The notes under the pieces: generated by a model
The model's database searches: none
What the model was told of the DNA's origin: nothing
The model's input: the letters and a program-made list of their open reading frames with translations, nothing else
Sequence record: ON286975
Origin: Escherichia phage I29
DNA: 64,000 nucleotides
Direction: 5' to 3' (one strand)
Translations under genes and position numbers: made by a program
Shown: positions 20,352-45,107 of the stretch, piece after piece
Layout of the letters: each line of letters opens with the position of its first letter
Position numbering within the stretch: position 1 is the stretch's first letter

Positions 20352-21197
20352 TTATGCCAGTGCAGCCTCAAAATCTTTCATCATATTTTGGAAAGTTTTT
20401 GCCTTACTTAAGGTAACACCGTGCTCTTTGGCGAAGGTTTGGAGTGCATCTTTTGAACCACTTTTGTCATCTTCGTTGTTAAGAGCTGCGGCCTGCTGCA
20501 GTATGGCATCAATATCACTGCGAGAAGATCTTGATTCTTGTGCCTGTTCAGGATCCTGCTCAGTACCTCCCGGTGCAGCCGGATCTGGGGATTCTTCACC
20601 GTCACCACCAGGTTCAGTAGGACCTACAGGCAGCTCCGGTTCTGGTTCAGGCGGTGGAGCTATCGTAGAAACCAGTCCAAGATTTACAACCTGAGAACGT
20701 TTCTTAGGCCACTCAATGGTGAAAGTTTGGGTATCTTCTTCATAAACAATGTTGCATTGCTCATCGTTTATGGTCACTTTTTTAGGCATCCCTACAGGGT
20801 CCCATAGATGGCCCTCTGCCACGGAAACTTGGAAAGCAGCATCTACCTCTTTAAACACTGACGGGGTGAGGGTGATATTGACATCCCCGCTTTGCAGTGT
20901 TAAAGTGCTTTCATCAAGGTTCTCTGTGAAGAACAGAAGAATAACACCCATACGGATAGTTGAAATACCAGTATCAATTGGCAGGCCTGTATGTTTTGCA
21001 ATCTTCTCGAAGAAGTCTACAATCGTTCTACATGGATAGTGAACACTGCCAATAACGAATTCTGTTGGTGGCAGCAGAGCTGATAAACCAACATTGATTT
21101 CTTGATTGTATTGTGCTAAAAATTGATAAAAACTTAATTGATTGTTGAAAACTCTTAATAGAGGATCATACTCAACTGGATATACAGCTCTCTTCAC
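20352..21197 (-). CDS. hypothetical head protein with Pro/Glu-rich linker
   Basis: 281-aa ORF, GTG start with AGGAG RBS; internal PPPEPEPELPVGPTEPGG low-complexity linker. Confidence 0.4.
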   Translation of the reverse strand: MKRAVYPVEYDPLLRVFNNQLSFYQFLAQYNQEINVGLSALLPPTEFVIGSVHYPCRTIVDFFEKIAKHTGLPIDTGISTIRMGVILLFFTENLDESTLTLQSGDVNITLTPSVFKEVDAAFQVSVAEGHLWDPVGMPKKVTINDEQCNIVYEEDTQTFTIEWPKKRSQVVNLGLVSTIAPPPEPEPELPVGPTEPGGDGEESPDPAAPGGTEQDPEQAQESRSSRSDIDAILQQAAALNNEDDKSGSKDALQTFAKEHGVTLSKAKTFQNMMKDFEAALA

Positions 21198-28518: not shown

Positions 28519-28595
28519 TGGTCTCCACGGAGTGATTCGAACACTCGACCTCCTGATCCCAAATCAGGCGCTCTACCAAGCTGAGCTACGCGGAG
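28519..28595 (-). tRNA. tRNA-Pro (anticodon UGG)
   Basis: Hand-folded: acceptor CTCCGCG/CGTGGAG (C1-G72), anticodon stem CCTGA/TCAGG, loop TTTGGGA, T-arm GAGTG-TTCGAAT-CACTC, encoded CCA. Confidence 0.8.
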
Positions 28596-28606
28596 TATTT
28601 ATTATT

Positions 28607-28681
28607 TGGTGGCCCTGGGTGGAATTGAACCACCGTCTGGCGATTATGAGTCGCTTGCTTGAACCTTCCAGCTACAGGGCC
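28607..28681 (-). tRNA. tRNA-Met or Ile2 (anticodon CAU)
   Basis: Hand-folded: acceptor GGCCCTG/CAGGGCC, anticodon loop CTCATAA, T-arm GGTGG-TTCAATT-CCACC, encoded CCA. Confidence 0.75.
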
Positions 28682-28682
28682 A

Positions 28683-28758
28683 TGGTGCTGATGGCAGGAC
28701 TTGAACCTGCAACCTATTGATTACAAATCAATTGCACTACCAATTGTGCTACATCAGC
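28683..28758 (-). tRNA. tRNA-Thr (anticodon UGU)
   Basis: Hand-folded: acceptor GCTGATG/CATCAGC, D-stem GCAC/GTGC, anticodon stem ATTGA/TCAAT, loop TTTGTAA, T-arm GCAGG-TTCAAGT-CCTGC, CCA. Confidence 0.8.
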
Positions 28759-28763
28759 AAAAA

Positions 28764-28862
28764 GGTGCTAGGTGATGGAATCGAACCACCTATGTATTCA
28801 ACGACTACCTCGTCTATTTTCAGGATTAAAAATCCTCGCCCTTGCCAAAGGGCTTACCTAGC
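28764..28862 (-). ncRNA. atypical tRNA-like element (possible pseudo-tRNA or small stable RNA); anticodon not assignable
   Basis: 7/7 complementary acceptor ends GCTAGGT/ACCTAGC, D-arm GCCC-TTTGGCAA-GGGC and T-arm GGTGG-TTCGATT-CCATC, but the 46-nt middle has no canonical anticodon arm and contains a tight AGGATT-TTT-AATCCT hairpin; 3' end is ACC-T rather than CCA. Confidence 0.35.
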
Positions 28863-28960
28863 TCAGTATGTTGACCATGTTGCTAGTCGGCGATGACGAC
28901 TGTAACATTTGATAATCCGGTTCTGCTTCCGGCTTTCGCTTAATTACAAGGTCAACAATA

Positions 28961-29051
28961 TGGCTGAGGGTAATGGAATCGAACCATCATCAAGTCATCC
29001 TCAACGGGACGGTTTTCAAGACCGCTTGAGCACCATTGCTCCCTACCCTCA
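28961..29051 (-). tRNA. tRNA-Ser (anticodon UGA), type II with long variable arm
   Basis: Hand-folded: acceptor TGAGGGT/ACCCTCA, anticodon stem GCGGT/ACCGT, loop CTTGAAA, long variable arm, T-arm GATGG-TTCGATT-CCATT, discriminator G, CCA. Confidence 0.7.
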
Positions 29052-29165
29052 TTTATAAACAATACTGATAATGACACTGATTTTCGAGCAGTTAGTGACT
29101 AGTATAAACGACGATAAATATCAATGCCATTATCTGTATGATTTATGCATTTAAAACTATAAATT

Positions 29166-29252
29166 TGGTGGGGAGTGGTGGAGTCGAACCACCCGAGTCG
29201 CAATGACAATAGATTTACAGTCTACACCGCTACCCCTACGGGATAACTCCCC
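29166..29252 (-). tRNA. tRNA-Tyr (anticodon GUA), type II
   Basis: Acceptor GGGGAGT/ACTCCCC, anticodon loop CTGTAAA and variable arm TGTCATTGCGACTCG closely resemble bacterial tRNA-Tyr; T-arm GGTGG-TTCGACT-CCACC, CCA. Confidence 0.8.
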
Positions 29253-29256
29253 AATT

Positions 29257-29331
29257 TGGCACCCCGTACTGGACTCGAACCAGTGTCAACGGCTTAGAAG
29301 GCCGCTGCTTTATCCACTAAGCTAACAGGGC
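29257..29331 (-). tRNA. tRNA-Arg (anticodon UCU)
   Basis: D-arm TTAGCTTAGTGGATAAAGC, anticodon stem-loop GCGGC-CTTCTAA-GCCGT, T-arm ACTGG-TTCGAGT-CCAGT, CCA; resembles bacterial tRNA-Arg(UCU). Confidence 0.75.
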
Positions 29332-29389
29332 ACTGGGTGGCTTTCTTTTACACCTTAGCCGCCAGAAAAGGTGGGAGACCATGTTTACA

Positions 29390-29419
29390 ATATTACACTG
29401 TTAAGCAAAGTTTGTCAAG
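29390..29419 (-). promoter_or_regulatory. sigma70-like promoter (TTGACA-18-TAATAT) upstream of tRNA cluster
   Basis: Minus-strand reading cTTGACAaactttgcttaacagtgTAATATtg, about 60 nt upstream of the first tRNA. Confidence 0.5.
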
Positions 29420-29794: not shown

Positions 29795-29823
29795 ATTTTA
29801 TCATAGCAAATACTGATTGTCAA
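29795..29823 (-). promoter_or_regulatory. sigma70-like promoter (TTGACA-17-TAAAAT)
   Basis: Minus-strand reading cTTGACAatcagtatttgctatgaTAAAATcc; same TTGACAAT...TAAAAT pattern as the promoter at 16115..16143. Confidence 0.55.
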
Positions 29824-31711: not shown

Positions 31712-31820
31712 GTGTCCGTATCACGGACAGCTAGTGTCCGTATTACGGGCAGATGTGTCCGCGTGACGGACAGTAGTGTCCGTATCACGGACAGTTAATA
31801 GTATCCGTTCCATGGCGAAC
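31712..31820. repeat. array of four tandem ~21-bp direct repeats (iteron/operator-like), each with internal inverted repeat, plus one degenerate copy
   Basis: GTGTCCGTATCACGGACAG at 31712-31730 and 31776-31794 (identical), GTGTCCGTATTACGGGCAG at 31734-31752, GTGTCCGCGTGACGGACAG at 31755-31773, degenerate copy about 31800-31820; spacing 22/21/21 bp; each unit contains GTCCG...CGGAC. Confidence 0.8.
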
Positions 31821-32266: not shown

Positions 32267-32821
32267 TTACTCCCTGCTGTCAATATCAAAACTCATTGCA
32301 ATACGGTATGCCTCTTCTAATGGTAAGAGTCTCCCCCACACATCCCAACCGACATCAAGCTGCCTGCCAAACAACTGTTGTGTGGTTCCGTGAGCATGAC
32401 CGAACAGTTGGACTGATCCGTGAGGCTTTCTGTTCCACTTTGCAAACTGGTAATGGCTCATACAGATCAAATTCTTGTTGTGGCGAAGCTCGTAATAATC
32501 TACAACCTCATGACCGAACTCTTTCATAATTCTGACAGTCGTCCTTGTGTCATGGTTGCCACGAACAAGAATAATATGTCCGTTCAACATATTTAGAATA
32601 TCTGGAAGTAAGTTGTTGATATTCTTATCATTAGTGCACGCAATATCTCCCAAGTGGAACACAGTGTCTGCAGGTGACACAACAGAGTTCCACTTGGCGA
32701 TGATTCCCGCATTCATACTGTCAAGATTGTGATCATACTGAGATCTGTGTTTTTGACATGAATCAAACTCCATGACCCGCTGGTGGAGAAAGTGTGTGTC
32801 GCTTGTTACAAAGTATTTCAT
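32267..32821 (-). CDS. calcineurin-like metallophosphoesterase (candidate RNA 2',3'-end phosphatase)
   Basis: ORF track 32267..32926; ATG at 32821 (MKYFVTSDTHF...) has a GAGGAA RBS. Motifs SDTHF, GDI, GNHD, GHAHG match binuclear metallophosphoesterases. Confidence 0.7.
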   Translation of the reverse strand: MKYFVTSDTHFLHQRVMEFDSCQKHRSQYDHNLDSMNAGIIAKWNSVVSPADTVFHLGDIACTNDKNINNLLPDILNMLNGHIILVRGNHDTRTTVRIMKEFGHEVVDYYELRHNKNLICMSHYQFAKWNRKPHGSVQLFGHAHGTTQQLFGRQLDVGWDVWGRLLPLEEAYRIAMSFDIDSRE

Positions 32822-32828
32822 ACATTCC

Positions 32829-33239
32829 TCATTTAAGTTTAATGCAGTTTTTAAGCTGGCGTTCCATACGATCCACAACCTTGTCTGGAACATCATGAAT
32901 GCTTTTATTACCGTGGCGGTTTTCAACCACGATCACGGTATAACTATACCCATGACTGATTGCCATGTCAACATATTCCTGCACATGTTTTTCTTTTGTA
33001 AACGTATTACTTACCACGATACGGTCGTATCCCATACGCATCATATCTTCTACGTTATCTTTGCACCATTTTGCTGCGAGTGTTACTTTACTTGCATCCC
33101 AGTTGTAATTGCCGTCATCGTCATACCAGAACATGTCGTTCTCAAAATGTGGATACAGACCCTCTAAAGATAGCGCATTTGCCAGTGTTGATTTGCCAGA
33201 CCCTGGTAGACCACGCACGATATATAGCATTTTAGACAT
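32829..33239 (-). CDS. P-loop kinase, polynucleotide kinase-like
   Basis: ORF track 32829..33296; ATG at 33239 (MSKMLYIVRGLPGSGKST...) has a GGAGGG RBS; Walker A GLPGSGKST at the N-terminus as in polynucleotide 5'-kinase domains; adjacent to phosphoesterase and RNA ligase-like genes. Confidence 0.55.
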   Translation of the reverse strand: MSKMLYIVRGLPGSGKSTLANALSLEGLYPHFENDMFWYDDDGNYNWDASKVTLAAKWCKDNVEDMMRMGYDRIVVSNTFTKEKHVQEYVDMAISHGYSYTVIVVENRHGNKSIHDVPDKVVDRMERQLKNCIKLK

Positions 33240-33339
33240 AGTGACCCTCCGTTTTAATTTCAACGGTAGTATACCTGACTGTTTTGTTAATTTCAAGTGT
33301 TGACACTAGGTTATTTGTGTGGCAGGATAGACTGACAAA

Positions 33340-34275
33340 ATGACAAATGAGGAACGTATGATGAAGTATTTTAATGCAGACGACCTAGTTGACAAAGGTC
33401 TTGTAACCAGTAGGTATTACCCAGATCTCGGGTTAAAGATCTATAAATATGCTAGAAAAGTATTTTACAACAATTTATGGCATTTGTCCCCTCGTTTACT
33501 GGAGTGCCGAGGCATTGTTGTAGGTAATGAAGGAAATGTTGTGGCATGGCCCTTCACAAAAGTGTTTAACTTGGGAGAAAACTCCACCAACCTGCCTGAC
33601 AATAAGCTTGTGACTGCGGTAGAGAAAAAGAACGGATTCCTTGGTGTGGTATCATCTCATAAAGGTGACCTATTGTTCTCAACAACCGGGTCTCTTGATT
33701 CTCCATATTGTAACCTTGCAAAGGAAACCATCCAAGAGCAATGTGGTAATTTAGATCTTATCAAGAAGGTTATGGGCAATGAAAACATGACATTCATGTT
33801 TGAAATTTGTCACCCTTCAGATCCGCATATTGTTCAAGAAGACCATGGCGCATATTTGATAGGTTGCAGATATAATGATTCTGGAATAATGCTACCAGAA
33901 GCAGCTTTAGATGGGATTGCCAAATACCTTGGTGCAAAACGTCCTCACACTGTGCGTGAAATCCCGTTCAGCTATGCAAAAGAATTAGCTGCAGAAACAA
34001 GGGGCGAAGGGTATATGATCCGTAAGCCTTACTACCCTTATGACCTGCAGCTGAAGATCAAGTCTCCATACTATTTGGCACGGAAGGCCGTAATGAGGGG
34101 TAAAGCTTGGAAGATTTGGGATGATGATATCTTTAAACGTATTGACGAAGAGTTTTATGGCATGGTAAACTTCATTCGTAGCAATTACACAGAAGATGTG
34201 TGGAACTGCCTCCTGGAGCAGGAACGCCGTGAGATACTTGATTGCTATTTTCACAACGAGGACTATATGCAATGA
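33340..34275 (+). CDS. RNA ligase-like nucleotidyltransferase
   Basis: 311 aa; covalent nucleotidyltransferase motif I-like VEKKNGFLG (KxNG); distinct from the DNA ligase at 36746; divergent from the kinase/phosphatase pair. Confidence 0.5.
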   Translation: MTNEERMMKYFNADDLVDKGLVTSRYYPDLGLKIYKYARKVFYNNLWHLSPRLLECRGIVVGNEGNVVAWPFTKVFNLGENSTNLPDNKLVTAVEKKNGFLGVVSSHKGDLLFSTTGSLDSPYCNLAKETIQEQCGNLDLIKKVMGNENMTFMFEICHPSDPHIVQEDHGAYLIGCRYNDSGIMLPEAALDGIAKYLGAKRPHTVREIPFSYAKELAAETRGEGYMIRKPYYPYDLQLKIKSPYYLARKAVMRGKAWKIWDDDIFKRIDEEFYGMVNFIRSNYTEDVWNCLLEQERREILDCYFHNEDYMQ

Positions 34276-34622
34276 AGAAGTTGATTGTGTGGCTAGATGA
34301 CTTGAGAGATCCGTCAAATTACGGAATCCAAGATGCTCTTTGGCTGAAGAACTCTTCTGAGTTCATGGATTTTATTAACGATAATAGAAAGCTCTACAGG
34401 CGCGTTTCTGAGTGGCATTTTGACAATGATCTAGGTGAAGTGCTTGAAGGGTACGACTGCTTCTCTGCGCTAGAGGAGAAACTTGTATTCGGAAAGCCAC
34501 CACTTATTGACAACGTGATTATTTTCGTGCATACTTCTAATCCATCGGCAGCTCGTAAATTTATGCTTGCTGCTGACTCATTCAAGAAGTTTGGAATAGA
34601 GATTAAACAAAACATCTACTGA
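34272..34622 (+). CDS. hypothetical protein, receiver (CheY-fold)-like residue pattern
   Basis: ORF track 34242..34622; ATG at 34272 overlaps the RNA ligase stop (ATGA). Pattern LIVWLDD ... HFDNDLG ... IFVHTSNP ... AARKF recalls the acidic/Thr/Lys positions of receiver domains (inference). Confidence 0.4.
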   Translation: MKKLIVWLDDLRDPSNYGIQDALWLKNSSEFMDFINDNRKLYRRVSEWHFDNDLGEVLEGYDCFSALEEKLVFGKPPLIDNVIIFVHTSNPSAARKFMLAADSFKKFGIEIKQNIY

Positions 34623-34630
34623 GGACACTT

Positions 34631-35392
34631 ATGCGACGACTGATTATTATCTCCGGTGCTGGTTTGAGCGCTGAATCTGGTATTCCCACTTTCCGATCTG
34701 GTAGCACTGCAATGTGGGAGAATTTCAGCATCGATGAGGTGTGCAACATCCACACCTTTGCCAAGAACTACTATAAGGTGCATGACTTTTACAATGCACG
34801 TCGTGTAGCTCTGGGCAGTGTTGATCCTAACCTTGCACATCTTCGGATCGCTGAGTGGTATTCCCGCTGGTCTGGTCGTGTGATCAACCTTACTACCAAT
34901 GTAGATGATTTGCTGGAGCGTGCTGGTGTAAAACATGAAGATATTTTACATGTCCACGGGTATTTGCCTGAAATCACCTACGAAGATGCTGAAGGTAATG
35001 ATGTAATTAAAAATATCGGATACACGGAGGTAGATACAGGCAAGTATACCTGGGTTAAGCCCAATGTAGTGTTCTTCGGTGAGGTTGCTCCTAAGTATAC
35101 AGACATGTATGACCTGTTGACATCTCTCACAAGCAATGATATGGTGATCCTGGTAGGTTGTTCTAACACAGTTATTAATTTTAACTGGGAATTGTTTCCT
35201 GCTACTTGTAAAGGCACAAAACTGCTGATTGTAAACAAGTATGATTCGCAGAGTGCAGATGGAAGTGGCATTTCACGTAGCGACCTTTATCAATATGAGG
35301 ATCGCGGGATCCCTGTATGGTTTAACGGTGCTGTTGACGCTTTCTCTGATAAAGCATTTATTGAAACTGTAGAAAACTTTATGGAACTTTAA
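34631..35392 (+). CDS. Sir2-family NAD-dependent deacylase/ADP-ribosyltransferase-like protein (zinc-ribbon-less)
   Basis: 253 aa; N-terminal GAGLSAESGIPTFRSG matches the Sir2 NAD-binding signature, with later HVHG; the canonical tetracysteine zinc module is not evident. Confidence 0.75.
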   Translation: MRRLIIISGAGLSAESGIPTFRSGSTAMWENFSIDEVCNIHTFAKNYYKVHDFYNARRVALGSVDPNLAHLRIAEWYSRWSGRVINLTTNVDDLLERAGVKHEDILHVHGYLPEITYEDAEGNDVIKNIGYTEVDTGKYTWVKPNVVFFGEVAPKYTDMYDLLTSLTSNDMVILVGCSNTVINFNWELFPATCKGTKLLIVNKYDSQSADGSGISRSDLYQYEDRGIPVWFNGAVDAFSDKAFIETVENFMEL

Positions 35393-35405: not shown

Positions 35406-36119
35406 ATGCTGAATACTAAACTGATCGACAACCTGGAAAAACTGTCCCAGCCTGAAAACTACCTTTGGTCTGCCAACTGGGTGGAAAACTGGAACCGTGT
35501 GGCAGCTAAAGTGAAAAAATCATACACACCATTCGAATTACAGCTTAGCTTCATTGAGGAAGAGTTCAATGAGGTTTTGGAAGAGCTGGAGAAAGGTGAT
35601 GGTGGAGATCACCTGCTAAAAGAGGCCTGCGATCTTCACGTTGTCACAAGTTATGCAGCTTATCTTGTTAATGATAACCACGAAAAGTGGTCAAACCTGT
35701 TTGATAATCCGCGAGGTCTTAAGTTCAAGATCGGTGAGTTCTATGATACACTGATCGCTGCGAAAAACACATCCAAGCAAAGAGCGTCAGCTTACCGACT
35801 AGCGGAGTTATCAACAGCTTTGCTGTTCCAGCTTAGCGGGGATGTGTGTGGGATGATGCGGAAGGTTCTAAAATCTAATGACAGTAAGTTTGCACGGATC
35901 AACCATCTACGGCATTCACACGGTGCCAGTGCAGATATGCCTGCTGAACAACTCATCGAGTTGGAGATTAAAGATCTTGAGCGTCGTTTTGGTGGTCGCT
36001 ACGAAGGTTTCGTTGCTAAAGAGGAGTTCTACAACGGCAATAAAGTTATTATATTCCTTGACAGTAAAGGTAAGATTATGAAGCCTTCGAGCTTCAAGGA
36101 TGTAACAGAGTATATTTAA
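35406..36119 (+). CDS. hypothetical protein, possible MazG-like NTP pyrophosphohydrolase
   Basis: 237 aa; EEEFNEVLEELEKGD ... LLKEACDLH resembles the EExxE...D metal-binding motif of MazG-like enzymes (weak). Confidence 0.35.
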   Translation: MLNTKLIDNLEKLSQPENYLWSANWVENWNRVAAKVKKSYTPFELQLSFIEEEFNEVLEELEKGDGGDHLLKEACDLHVVTSYAAYLVNDNHEKWSNLFDNPRGLKFKIGEFYDTLIAAKNTSKQRASAYRLAELSTALLFQLSGDVCGMMRKVLKSNDSKFARINHLRHSHGASADMPAEQLIELEIKDLERRFGGRYEGFVAKEEFYNGNKVIIFLDSKGKIMKPSSFKDVTEYI

Positions 36120-44686: not shown

Positions 44687-45107
44687 TGCGAAAGCTTTTG
44701 GTGAGACAGCGGTACAAAGGGGGCAGGCAATGGGACTGGCACTACCTTTCGTCTTAAAAGAGCACTTTACAGATTTTCAACTTATCAAGGGCGATAAGGG
44801 AATGCTTATCCTGGAGCATAAGTTGAGTAAGAAACGCTATAAAGTTGTTTTTAATTCTAAAGCTCCAACAAAACTGGGATTCAGAACTTACAATCTTAAC
44901 CCATCCTACACTAAGGGTGTTGGAAGGGTAGAACAACAGCATTTCAGTGCCAGAGCTTCTTTAGCCCCTTTGATGCTAAATTTCTCAGGGGTGGCTTTAG
45001 GATACCTTGATAAGAAAAGAGTTCTTCATGTCCGTTTCACAGACTTTGTAACGCTTTTAGCTAACAACGAGGTTGATGAAAAGGGACGTGTAAAAACAAA
45101 CTTCTAA
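44649..45107 (+). CDS. hypothetical protein (start uncertain)
   Basis: 152-aa ORF overlapping methyltransferase end by 38 nt. Confidence 0.35.
   Translation: MIKSIDLTKELTDAKAFGETAVQRGQAMGLALPFVLKEHFTDFQLIKGDKGMLILEHKLSKKRYKVVFNSKAPTKLGFRTYNLNPSYTKGVGRVEQQHFSARASLAPLMLNFSGVALGYLDKKRVLHVRFTDFVTLLANNEVDEKGRVKTNF

Follow-up and report, generated by a model that had tools for sequence, protein, structure and literature searches.

Introduction

The tRNA cluster of phage T4 is a polycistronic operon that embeds small stable RNAs of unknown function (rnaC and rnaD) among its tRNAs. T4 also encodes the tRNA repair enzymes Pnk and Rnl1, and its Pnk includes a fused phosphatase domain of the HAD type. 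The tRNA region of phage T5 is served by strong early promoters and contains tRNA-Tyr, tRNA-Thr(UGU), and a Lys(UUU)-type RNA, all of which have counterparts in the locus described here (PMC11464382; PMC12409363; PMC11555353). In the P1 family, phages P7 and D6 carry a tRNA operon upstream of ban, and the operon of P1 and P7 is repressor-controlled. The closest described system is the cluster of the rV5-like coliphages, for which the rV5 genome paper reported six tRNAs together with a codon-usage rationale (Kropinski et al., 2013; PMC3606486).

The locus studied here belongs to Escherichia phage I29 (ON286975) and lies within a stretch of 64,000 nucleotides that was analysed as a whole and is called the window below. 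It is the same locus as the rV5 cluster, with 99-100% sequence identity (PMC3606486). The tRNA region is 100% identical to that of Escherichia phage A51.2, a Vequintavirus, and dozens of Vequintavirus genomes are at least 98% identical in the region and have the same tRNAs annotated. At least 80% of the cluster is covered by 112 records; among the 30 relatives listed, all 30 conserve the cluster at 98% or more, and divergence is seen in the outer spacer regions.

We read the region as a polycistronic tRNA operon on the minus strand of an rV5-like coliphage (Vequintavirus), mainly supplying tRNAs for codons that are enriched in the phage, and we give this reading a probability of about 0.8. Because the same tRNAs and the same codon argument were published for rV5 in 2013, the six-tRNA finding itself is already known. 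What is added is the identification of the CAU tRNA as tRNA-Ile2, the absence of a nuclease-evasion signature in the six tRNAs, and two RNAs that are supported by covariation. In the rV5 paper the CAU tRNA was entered as tRNA-Met, and the seventh tRNA-like gene, the RNA trailing tRNA-Ser, and the spacer hairpin described below do not appear (PMC3606486).

Six standard tRNA genes

A preliminary description of this DNA had recognized six tRNA genes. ARAGORN calls all six of them (6/6) in their places on the minus strand, but a seventh gene of tRNA type, at 28764-28862(-), had been overlooked. In the order of transcription, tRNA-Arg is followed after 4 nt by tRNA-Tyr, after 114 nt by tRNA-Ser, after 98 nt by the seventh gene, after 5 nt by tRNA-Thr, after 1 nt by tRNA-Ile, and after 11 nt by tRNA-Pro. 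The packing at 2-5 nt in places that had been described earlier is correct, as the Arg-Tyr and seventh gene-Thr gaps illustrate.

tRNA-Arg(UCU) (29257..29331(-)) reads AGA, tRNA-Tyr(GUA) (29166..29252(-)) is a class II tRNA that reads UAC and UAU, tRNA-Ser(UGA) (28961..29051(-)) is also of class II, and tRNA-Thr(UGU) (28683..28758(-)) reads ACA. They are followed by the CAU tRNA (28607..28681(-)) and tRNA-Pro(UGG) (28519..28595(-)). Against the Rfam tRNA model RF00005, which has a gathering score of 29, the Thr, Arg, Pro, and CAU tRNAs score between 60 and 80 bits (79.5, 67.8, 66.4, and 60 bits, respectively). The Ser and Tyr tRNAs are called by ARAGORN only; in Rfam they come closest to the tRNA-Sec model, at 37.9 and 34.6 bits, short of its threshold of 47. 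The rV5 paper too relied on ARAGORN for tRNA-Ser (PMC3606486). This tRNA-Ser has an atypical D arm (5-bp stem and 4-nt loop) and discriminator G73; its assignment as a tRNA-Sec or an allo-tRNA was rejected, the tRNA-Sec score being sub-threshold. Rfam hits to YrlA, tmRNA, and Plastid-ycf2 are likewise sub-threshold and overlap ordinary tRNAs.

A near-identical atypical tRNA-Ser(UGA) is found in the P7 and D6 operon, which also has Thr(UGU) and Ile2(CAU) but differs in having Asn and in lacking Arg, Tyr, and Pro. Five of the eight T4 isoacceptor types (Arg, Ile, Thr, Ser, and Pro) occur in the I29 cluster, and T4 uses the same five anticodons for them. The tRNA-Pro is 82% identical to that of T4, whereas the Tyr(GUA) of I29 has no counterpart in T4.

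ARAGORN labels the CAU tRNA 'Met', and the preliminary description had left it as Met or Ile. Ile2 is borne out and Met is not. Every E. coli match listed, with the ranking sampled from top to bottom, carries a tRNA-Ile annotation, and the core of the anticodon stem-loop (GCGACUCAUAAUCGC) is identical to that of ileX. The tRNA has G1-C72, which marks a non-initiator tRNA, and the TilS determinants C4-G69 and C5-G68; at 27:43, where a weak pair counts as a further determinant, it has A-C and not G.U. Judged by these sequence features, it is a tRNA-Ile2 that reads AUA and not a tRNA-Met, and host TilS would provide the lysidine modification.

Probable role in codon supply

tRNA-Pro(UGG) reads CCA and, by way of a modified U34, also CCU and CCG. 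The suggestion in the preliminary description that the tRNA set may compensate for codon usage is upheld by the enrichment of the cognate codons in phage genes, and the refuting outcome named there, anticodons whose codons are not enriched, did not arise. With phage genes taken by a greedy ORF rule rather than from curated annotation, and with an E. coli reference that is a single 50-kb stretch containing many ribosomal-protein genes, the phage to E. coli frequency ratios place AGA, AUA, and ACA at ranks 1, 2, and 3 among 61 codons, and UCA, UAC, and CCA at ranks 16, 18, and 19. CCU, another codon of this tRNA-Pro, ranks 4th. For the cognate codons, the rank-sum test gives P = 0.0005 on the frequency ratio and P = 0.011 on the within-family difference. 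Relative to E. coli, the enrichment is 4.4-fold for AGA, 3.0-fold for AUA, 2.8-fold for ACA, and 2.6-fold for CCU, and it is modest for UCA and CCA (about 1.4- to 1.5-fold).

Codon enrichment is a sufficient explanation for the Arg, Ile2, Thr, and Pro tRNAs. Synonymous codon bias does not explain tRNA-Tyr: UAC makes up 48% of the Tyr codons in the phage vs. 54% in the E. coli sample and is not favored in the within-family comparison.

Candidate promoters and proposed expression

The near-consensus promoter motif that had been described for the cluster is present, although its spacer is 17 nt long and not 18. The promoter scan places this putative sigma-70-type promoter at 29390..29418(-), with TTGACA at 29418-29413 and TAATAT at 29395-29390. 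The hexamers match at 6/6 positions in the -35 element and 4/6 in the -10 element (10/12 overall), and the predicted transcription start lies near 29383. The cluster has a predicted promoter of its own, as claimed, but not as its sole one, since a second, stronger candidate (TTGACA-17-TAAAAT) is found 400 nt upstream at 29823(-). No terminator-like site was called between 29766 and 29418. The match to the promoter motif exceeds chance. The window contains 13 copies of TTGACA-N17-TANNNT vs. 1.04 +/- 1.15 expected, 0/100 shuffles reach 13, and the sites match the orientation of the genes. The promoter is 100% conserved in a diverged contig, L008. The 58-nt leader that runs from it to tRNA-Arg (29332..29389(-)) has one substitution relative to L008 and contains no significant fold (z = +0.86).

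We propose that host sigma-70 RNA polymerase would initiate at TTGACA-17-TAATAT (29418-29390), probably in addition to read-through from the stronger early promoter upstream. The resulting long precursor would be cut by RNase P and 3' processing enzymes of the host into the six standard tRNAs Arg(UCU), Tyr(GUA), Ser(UGA), Thr(UGU), Ile2(CAU), and Pro(UGG). Once aminoacylated, these would mainly supplement the host tRNA pool, to the presumed benefit of translation, for codons that are commoner by 1.5- to 4.4-fold in this phage of 43% G+C than in E. coli. The supplemented codons would be AGA, AUA, ACA, CCU/CCA, and UCA/UCU, and the tRNA-Tyr may serve a higher overall tyrosine content. Three more conserved RNA structures would lie on this transcript, namely the seventh gene, an 89-nt RNA, and a hairpin between tRNA-Tyr and tRNA-Ser.

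The seventh, tRNA-shaped gene

The seventh gene (28764..28862(-)) encodes a 99-nt tRNA-shaped RNA that ARAGORN reports as 'tRNA-???' and that scores 35.5 bits against the Rfam tRNA model (vs. 29). The acceptor stem has 7 bp, and a D arm, a T arm, and an extra region of roughly 28 nt are also present. Unlike that of any class II tRNA, this extra region carries conserved single-stranded linkers of 8-9 nt. The 'anticodon' hairpin, of 4-5 bp, closes a loop of 7 nt, UUUUUAA, which includes U33, the anticodon UUU, A37, and A38; the hairpin stem has only four Watson-Crick pairs and a G-G mismatch at 27:43. A8 and U14 stand where U8 and A14 would be expected. At the 3' end the discriminator A73 is followed by CC without the final A, which gives ACC and then U5. 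Relative to host tRNA-Lys the gene shows C32U together with A41C, unlike the six canonical tRNAs, and an A41C-type change is also present in the Lys-type anticodon stem of T5 (PMC12409363).

The predicted fold has strong covariation support across the Vequintavirinae. In a set of 11 homologues pairing is kept in 99.2% of cells, and both sides have changed in 10 pairs, among them the tertiary pair 19:56 (G:C<->U:A). RNAalifold independently gives the same fold, with a 6-bp D stem and a 4-nt loop. The ARAGORN model, which has a 4-base anticodon AUCC and an AUUUU/AAAAU stem, was rejected, as the homologues lack the 5' strand of this stem; covariation is seen instead in the AGGA(U)/(A)UCCU hairpin. 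The homologues themselves receive no ARAGORN call. By its acceptor, D, and T arms and by the tertiary pair between D-loop and T-loop the RNA is tRNA-like, but it departs from a decoding tRNA in the 5-bp anticodon stem and in the conservation of U33 and the anticodon. No single anticodon is fixed in the loop, because in Av-05, a close relative, it reads UUUAUAA and the discriminator is U. Henunavirus-like versions have YAUCAAA (with A33), the loops of Seunavirus and Mydovirus have 6 or 8 nt, and the sister genera overall have loops of 6-8 nt and discriminator U. Exact-motif scans of viral and metagenome contigs gave no remote homologues of the gene, since they returned only Vequintavirinae-like contigs. 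In GenBank the gene is a tRNAscan-based tRNA-Lys in some records and a pseudo-tRNA in others; for it and for the RNA trailing tRNA-Ser, annotation is inconsistent or absent.

Allo-tRNAs and tRNA-Sec-like RNAs have an acceptor/T geometry of 8/5, 8/4, or 9/3, and tRNA-Sec has the anticodon UCA. The seventh gene resembles them in its long extra arm, in its long D stem with a 4-nt loop, and in an anticodon that varies between relatives. It is unlike them in its geometry of 7/5, in the 6- or 8-nt loops of most homologues, and in the 8-9-nt linkers that flank the extra arm; with this geometry, and with the anticodon UUU in place of the UCA of Sec, both assignments were rejected. T4 rnaC and rnaD show no similarity to the seventh gene or to the spacers (about 0.5 identity, which is the level of unrelated tRNAs). 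Codon supply does not explain the seventh gene. The use of AAA is near-equal in phage and host (ratio 1.11), and tRNA-Lys(UUU) is encoded more than once in the host, with five genes in the single locus examined.

Structured RNAs in the spacers

An 89-nt structured RNA (28869..28957(-)) trails tRNA-Ser. It comprises a closing helix (TGTTGACC/GGTCAACA), two internal hairpins, and conserved linkers. The RNA is 83% identical to lambda 44866-44952, in the late leader, follows the atypical tRNA-Ser in P7 and D6, occurs in ST1UNAM, and is present in 146 phage records in all. Its closing helix is kept in at least six sequence versions, unrelated phages included, and one pair of an internal hairpin covaries. 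The helix was traced by a custom helix search, since the MAFFT alignment misregistered it across types. No Rfam family matched the RNA at E <= 1 in the window or at E <= 5 in lambda, P7, D6, and ST1UNAM, and the lambda and prophage records examined have no annotation of a structured RNA in the lambda late-operon leader. Its identification with the sRNA STnc100 was rejected, as the STnc100-like stretch of P7 and D6, which is itself sub-threshold, sits 3' of the element. A Pas sRNA is unlikely and was set aside as well; the published BLAST of Pas found only 43 phage genomes vs. the 146 phage records here. A scan of genome contigs was uninformative, its hits being apparent lambda-contaminated contigs of unrelated taxa (48.4-48.5 kb, low coverage; sequences unchecked).

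The 3'ETS-leuZ of E. coli is a stable RNA that derives from a tRNA spacer and ends in the operon terminator. The trailer may be analogous in being a structured RNA that follows a tRNA immediately on its 3' side within a polycistronic precursor, although its own position is internal. Lying there, it would be released by tRNA processing.

The Tyr-Ser spacer (29052-29165) holds a long imperfect RNA hairpin (29055..29146(-); MFE -26.4 kcal/mol) with z = -4.2, and 0/200 shuffles fold as well. The arms still pair in contig L008 through compensatory and G.U changes. The hairpin includes a weak promoter-like sequence, ATGGCA-18-TATACT. No Rfam families were found in either spacer.

Anticodon loops and RNA repair genes

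It had also been suggested that the tRNAs replace host tRNAs cleaved by anticodon nucleases, which would link them to an adjacent RNA repair locus. Phage tRNAs that evade such nucleases are reported to carry a mutation signature in the anticodon loop (PMC10264068, cited in PMC11555353). In the six canonical tRNAs this signature, a difference from the host isoacceptor at nuclease recognition positions of the anticodon loop or stem, is absent. Arg, Tyr, Ser, Ile2, and Pro each have the unchanged anticodon loop of their E. coli K-12 isoacceptor (argU for Arg and tyrU for Tyr; in Ser the whole anticodon stem-loop is that of serT). tRNA-Thr differs from thrU in the anticodon loop by C32U alone, and it keeps U16 and the AriB cleavage site U36AAUC|A41 (PMC12409363). 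The loops give replacement no support, and they do not refute it: resupply from a strong phage promoter can work even with a tRNA-Tyr of host sequence (PMC11555353), and UAC is not favored within its family. The tRNA-Lys(UUU)-like seventh gene is the best fit to the replacement idea.

Pfam finds the RNA repair domains that had been described, but the genes are not adjacent, because they lie 2.9-5 kb upstream with about eight small ORFs between. A P-loop kinase ORF (32829-33296(-); AAA_33, E = 1.8e-10) overlaps a calcineurin-like phosphoesterase ORF (32267-32926(-); Metallophos_2 and Metallophos, E about 2e-6 to 6e-6), and the two (32267..33296(-)) belong to the same leftward early region as the tRNAs. 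The phosphoesterase ORF is annotated 'putative phosphoesterase' in phage ime. An Rnl1-type RNA ligase is transcribed divergently (33340-34275(+); RNA_lig_T4_1, E = 1.1e-14), and a protein with a cREC_REC cyclic-phosphate-processing domain is encoded at 34242-34622(+) (Pfam, E = 5.7e-14). At the level of predicted domains, the parts of a T4-type tRNA repair system are present. Unlike the fused domain of T4 Pnk, the phosphatase here would be a calcineurin-like metallophosphoesterase on a separate ORF (Pfam).

Competing explanations

Some or all of the tRNAs might mainly refill pools that are cut by host tRNA-cutting defences, with PARIS/AriB (Lys UUU, Thr UGU, and Asn GUU), Retron-Eco7 PtuAB (Tyr), and PrrC (Lys) as the opponents. 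Colicin D cuts Arg tRNA and is a further candidate. Such resupply would rely on early expression from strong promoters, alongside the nearby kinase, phosphoesterase, and Rnl1 enzymes for healing and sealing; we consider it possible but doubtful. The two tandem near-consensus promoters would suit it, as would the repair domains in the same early region and a tRNA-Tyr that synonymous codon bias leaves unaccounted for. Retron-Eco7 is overcome when a strong phage promoter overexpresses tRNA-Tyr, even one of host sequence (PMC11555353). Thr(UGU) and Lys(UUU) are prime AriB targets, and the seventh gene mimics the anticodon arm of host tRNA-Lys and has a C at 41, which 'substantially inhibits' AriB (PMC12409363). 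Yet five of the anticodon loops are those of the host, tRNA-Thr retains the full AriB site UAAUC|A plus U16, and the Arg, Ile2, Thr, and Pro tRNAs need no explanation beyond codon enrichment. Papers that deal with PARIS and Retron-Eco7 yielded no defence-assay data on rV5-like phages. Compared with the anti-defence system of T5, the AriB site is retained in the Thr of I29, its Lys-like RNA is non-canonical, and a defence role of the rV5-like cluster would be a prediction from sequence.

The identity set of E. coli LysRS consists of the anticodon and A73. The seventh gene has both, in its loop UUUUUAA (U33, UUU, A37, and A38) and its discriminator, and sister-genus versions, with loops of 6-8 nt and discriminator U, lack both. 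Along with the tRNAscan-based GenBank annotations as tRNA-Lys, this would agree with a working, structurally aberrant tRNA-Lys(UUU) that, in this genus, is charged by LysRS and takes part in translation, as opposed to a non-decoding mimic. We lean against such a tRNA, given an anticodon stem with four Watson-Crick pairs and G-G at 27:43, a ~28-nt extra region with its single-stranded linkers, A8/U14, and a 3' ACC followed by U5. Av-05 has changed both the loop (UUUAUAA) and the discriminator (U), and the 6- or 8-nt loops of homologues in other genera cannot decode. The pseudo-tRNA label of some GenBank records and the incomplete encoded CCA would fit a different history, in which the cluster is a decaying remnant of a larger ancestral array and the spacers and odd gene are functionless pseudogene debris. 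Sister genera have arrays of 17-24 tRNAs, and Seunavirus, Mydovirus, and Avunavirus carry many more tRNAs in the syntenic region (PMC6563267). Decay is nevertheless very improbable in our view. The seventh gene keeps every helix through its 10 both-side pair changes, the tertiary pair included, in several Vequintavirinae genera, and unrelated phages preserve the closing helix of the trailer in its different sequence versions. The six retained tRNAs are those for the most enriched codons, and the cluster is conserved at 98% or more in every one of the relatives listed while the outer spacer parts diverge.

Significance

The reading as an operon that supplies phage-enriched codons can be extended, in a proposal that we offer as speculative and rather unlikely, to one in which the codon supplement is joined by conserved non-standard RNAs in conflict over host tRNAs. 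The seventh gene would then be a scaffold with a rewritten loop, acting as a resistant Lys donor or as a decoy for PrrC or PARIS, and it would complement the kinase, phosphoesterase, and Rnl1 genes 3-5 kb upstream. The 89-nt RNA, a predicted three-way junction, would be a module exchanged between lambda, P1-family, and rV5-like phages. If the Lys mimic is indeed a resistant tRNA or a decoy, the T5/PARIS paradigm would extend to a common family of therapeutic coliphages, and the gene would be an example of a tRNA scaffold that is re-targeted through loop rewriting. A conserved structured RNA in the lambda late-operon leader would be of interest to phage RNA biology.

The tRNA Gene Cluster

ARAGORN calls seven genes in the whole window, and all lie within 28519-29331 on the minus strand. 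The preliminary description has six of them, Pro(UGG), a CAU tRNA, Thr(UGU), Ser(UGA), Tyr(GUA) and Arg(UCU), and its coordinates for them are exact. In transcription order, the genes and the gaps between them (in nt) are Arg-4-Tyr-114-Ser-98-seventh gene-5-Thr-1-CAU-11-Pro. On the Rfam tRNA model (gathering score 29), Thr, Arg, Pro and CAU reach 60-80 bits. For Ser and Tyr, which belong to the long-arm class II, the top Rfam match is tRNA-Sec at a sub-threshold score; the rV5 genome paper also needed ARAGORN for Ser (PMC3606486). The tRNA-Ser(UGA) gene (28961-29051, minus strand) has an unusual D arm with a 5-bp stem and a 4-nt loop, and its best-scoring model is tRNA-Sec, at 37.9 bits in the window and 46.6 in phage P7 (gathering score 47).

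The CAU tRNA had been left as Met/Ile, and of the two only Ile is upheld. All 12 of the listed E. coli matches, sampled evenly from best to weakest, are annotated as tRNA-Ile. Its anticodon stem-loop core, GCGACUCAUAAUCGC, is that of ileX, and G1-C72, C4-G69 and C5-G68 are present. By sequence this is an Ile2 tRNA, which fits because AUA is the second most enriched codon of the phage; lysidine modification by the host's TilS would then be needed.

Across the 1,061 bases around the cluster, the sequence matches Escherichia phage A51.2 at 100% identity and dozens of Vequintavirus (rV5-like) genomes at 98% or more. Small early ORFs flank the cluster on one side in those records, and a hypothetical gene, i-spanin and terminase genes on the other; GenBank records annotate four to seven tRNAs in it. 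The spacer between Tyr and Ser contains a long hairpin (29055-29146, minus strand, z = -4.2). In the contig of a diverged relative (L008), compensatory and G.U changes keep its arms paired. This hairpin, which may be a processing site, has a weak promoter-like ATGGCA-18-TATACT inside it.

Promoters and the Early Region

A promoter precedes the cluster at 29418..29390 on the minus strand. Its TTGACA and TAATAT hexamers are as first described, with a spacer of 17 rather than 18. TTGACA-N17-TANNNT sites occur 13 times in the window versus 1.04 +/- 1.15 times in shuffles. Those left of ~33 kb lie on the minus strand, except for a plus-strand site at 20878, and those right of ~35 kb all lie on the plus strand, so that their strands match gene orientation. 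In L008 the spacers differ, and the cluster promoter and 58-nt leader are unchanged. Because of this class enrichment, orientation agreement and conservation, the promoter is more than a chance match. A second, better promoter lies at 29823 (minus strand, 11/12 matches, extended -10 TG). No terminator-like site was called between 29766 and 29418. Promoters of this class, 13-fold over-represented, span 6946-61278 and include 29823, 30433 and 32971 (minus) and 35117 and 38628 (plus).

The strand switch at ~33-35 kb marks a divergent early-transcription centre at RNA repair genes. The RNA repair locus was said to adjoin the cluster; its genes are upheld at the level of protein domains, and they share the early region with the cluster but are nearby rather than adjacent, at 2.9-5 kb upstream. 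They encode an Rnl1 ligase (RNA_lig_T4_1, 33340-34275, plus), an adjoining cREC_REC cyclic-phosphate-processing domain (34242-34622, plus), an AAA_33 kinase (32829-33296, minus) and a calcineurin-like phosphoesterase (32267-32926, minus). Near the ligase are a SIR2-family protein (34631-35392, plus, E = 7e-28) and an ORF (35406-36119, plus) that is Sir2-like by annotation in relatives and has no Pfam match. A repeat_region annotated by phage ime (8554-8638), in a noncoding gap upstream of an HTH regulator gene, corresponds to window ~31714-31798.

Codon Supply and Possible tRNA Replacement

Codon use in the non-overlapping ORFs of the window (70 ORFs, 52 kb) was compared with that in 50 kb of E. 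coli K-12 sequence, all from one region with many ribosomal-protein genes. The most phage-enriched codons relative to this sample are AGA (4.4-fold), AUA (3.0-fold) and ACA (2.8-fold), followed by CCU (2.6-fold), which is read by tRNA-Pro(UGG) via modified U34. UAU is enriched 1.7-fold, and UCU and UCA ~1.5-fold. The six Watson-Crick cognate codons are enriched by rank-sum test, with P = 0.0005 for the frequency ratio and P = 0.011 for the within-family difference. The proposed codon compensation is borne out, with Tyr as the exception: the UAC share of its family is slightly lower in the phage (48% vs 54% in the E. coli sample), and only the higher tyrosine content (41 vs 26 per 1000 codons) argues for a supply role. 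The rV5 genome paper had described six tRNAs (Arg AGA, Tyr TAC, Thr ACA, Met ATG, Pro CCA and Ser) and proposed that phage mRNAs would be translated faster with the Arg and Pro tRNAs (PMC3606486). The cluster as first described holds up with minor corrections. The finding, as first stated, was therefore already known, and its codon-supply interpretation, already published, is supported here.

The cluster might instead replace host tRNAs cleaved by anticodon nucleases. When the phage tRNAs are aligned to E. coli K-12 isoacceptors, five of them (Arg, Tyr, Ser, Ile2 and Pro) have seven-base anticodon loops identical to those of the host. For tRNA-Thr the only difference is C32U; it keeps U36AAUC|A41, the site described for the host tRNA-cutting defence PARIS/AriB, and U16 (PMC12409363). 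The anticodon-loop mutations that would signal evasion are therefore absent from the six canonical genes; resupply with tRNAs of host sequence stays compatible with these loops. Azam et al. found that tRNA-Tyr from a strong phage promoter overcomes another such defence, Retron-Eco7, also when its sequence is that of the host tRNA (PMC11555353), and Tyr is the cluster gene least explained by codon bias. For the six tRNAs the nuclease-replacement link is unproven.

A Seventh, tRNA-Like Gene

The seventh gene (99 nt, 28764-28862, minus strand) was missed in the preliminary description. It scores 35.5 bits on the Rfam tRNA model with ~26 nt taken as insertion, and ARAGORN reports it as '???' with a 4-base anticodon. 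GenBank records call it tRNA-OTHER, tRNA-Lys, pseudo or tRNA-TERM, or leave it unannotated. Homologues occur across Vequintavirinae (Seunavirus, Mydovirus, Henunavirus, Avunavirus and metagenomic contigs), and wherever a relative's surroundings were inspected the gene comes after tRNA-Thr, directly or with one gene between. Among 11 distinct aligned sequences, pairing is 99.2% across the acceptor, D, 'anticodon' and T helices, ten pairs are changed on both sides versus at most two with partners slid, and the tertiary D-loop/T-loop pair G19:C56 becomes U:A in four. RNAalifold predicts the same fold unaided. On this comparative evidence, the seventh gene is a real, selected, L-shaped tRNA-like RNA. 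Its extra region has conserved single-stranded GAAAAUAG and (U)GAAUACAU on either side of a hairpin that varies in sequence and length.

The RNA could be a charged aberrant tRNA-Lys or a non-decoding mimic, and we give the two roughly equal odds. Its discriminator is A here and U in all other genera, and LysRS identity elements are A73 together with a UUU anticodon. The 'anticodon' loop is not conserved, varying in length and sequence by genus: UUUUUAA in the window, UUUAUAA in Av-05, YAUCAAA (with A33) in Henunavirus-like phages, and 6- or 8-nt loops (C-CAUCCA-G and variants) in Seunavirus and Mydovirus. ARAGORN makes no call on homologues with those differing loops. In this genus, loop and proximal stem copy host tRNA-Lys(UUU), GA-UUUUUAA-UC vs GA-CUUUUAA-UC in the host. 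The differences are C32U and A41C, and A41C is among the changes that blunt AriB (PMC12409363).

A Structured RNA Downstream of tRNA-Ser

An 89-nt structured RNA (28869-28957, minus strand), here called the trailer, lies directly 3' of tRNA-Ser(UGA). The 98-nt spacer that holds it is 83% identical to lambda J02459 44866-44952 (L003 701-787), an unannotated gap between orf-64/tR' and gene S in the late-operon leader. In the P1-family phages P7 (L025 1501-1565) and D6 (L026 1501-1566), the trailer follows a near-identical atypical tRNA-Ser(UGA) inside a tRNA-ban operon. It is also found in one Salmonella siphophage, on more than 100 prophage-like IMG/VR contigs (mostly the lambda-type version) and in 426 of 5,426 complete E. 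coli genomes. None of 40 sampled matches in those genomes has an annotated feature under it, nor do the records listed, bar a hypothetical protein in one Campylobacter phage record.

The trailer core of ~68 nt is nearly invariant, and the closing helix (7-15 bp) persists in six or more unrelated sequence versions. Two G.U pairs of the P7 helix are valid only on the tRNA-sense RNA strand, and one internal hairpin pair covaries, U-A becoming G-C in 4 of 12 sequences. No Rfam family matches the trailer. Pas and STnc100, recently described prophage sRNAs of the same late-leader region, were considered as its identity and rejected. In our reading, the trailer is a structured RNA module that tRNA processing would release. 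The near-identity of tRNA-Ser(UGA) in rV5-like and P1-like phages (window 28961-29051; L025 1390-1476; L026 1391-1477) implies that a Ser-plus-trailer module would have been exchanged between them.

The lambda version also occurs on low-coverage contigs of ~48.4-48.5 kb or on small contigs in assemblies of Pseudomonas, Shewanella, Bacillus-type bacteria and actinomycetes (L145-L166), which looks like lambda DNA contamination of assemblies from unrelated taxa. Some 18-19 GenBank 'Campylobacter phage' records match the cluster, the two listed over its full length at 99.9% identity, and in the 48-kb record CJLB-4 the trailer is the lambda version, 100% identical and at lambda-like coordinates. 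These records are probably mislabelled or contaminant.

Relation to Other Phage tRNA Clusters

The operon works like the T4 tRNA cluster, with which it has five isoacceptor types in common and a tRNA-Pro of 82% identity. Both embed RNAs of obscure role among their tRNAs; T4's stable RNAs, rnaC and rnaD, have no sequence relationship to the extra RNAs of this phage. Sister genera differ in carrying 17-24 tRNAs. Seunavirus relatives have a tRNA-Lys(UUU) of 84-87 nt, whose D arm carries an inserted hairpin, and a tRNA-Asn(GUU) of 85-89 nt, with a long extra arm (L010 5763-5848 and 5910-5994; L013 5242-5328 and 5498-5586; L014 5113-5196 and 5370-5458). Both isoacceptors are targeted by PARIS/AriB. 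Within the cluster, the seventh tRNA-like gene and the trailer RNA shared with lambda and P1 are the only parts possibly worth experiments.
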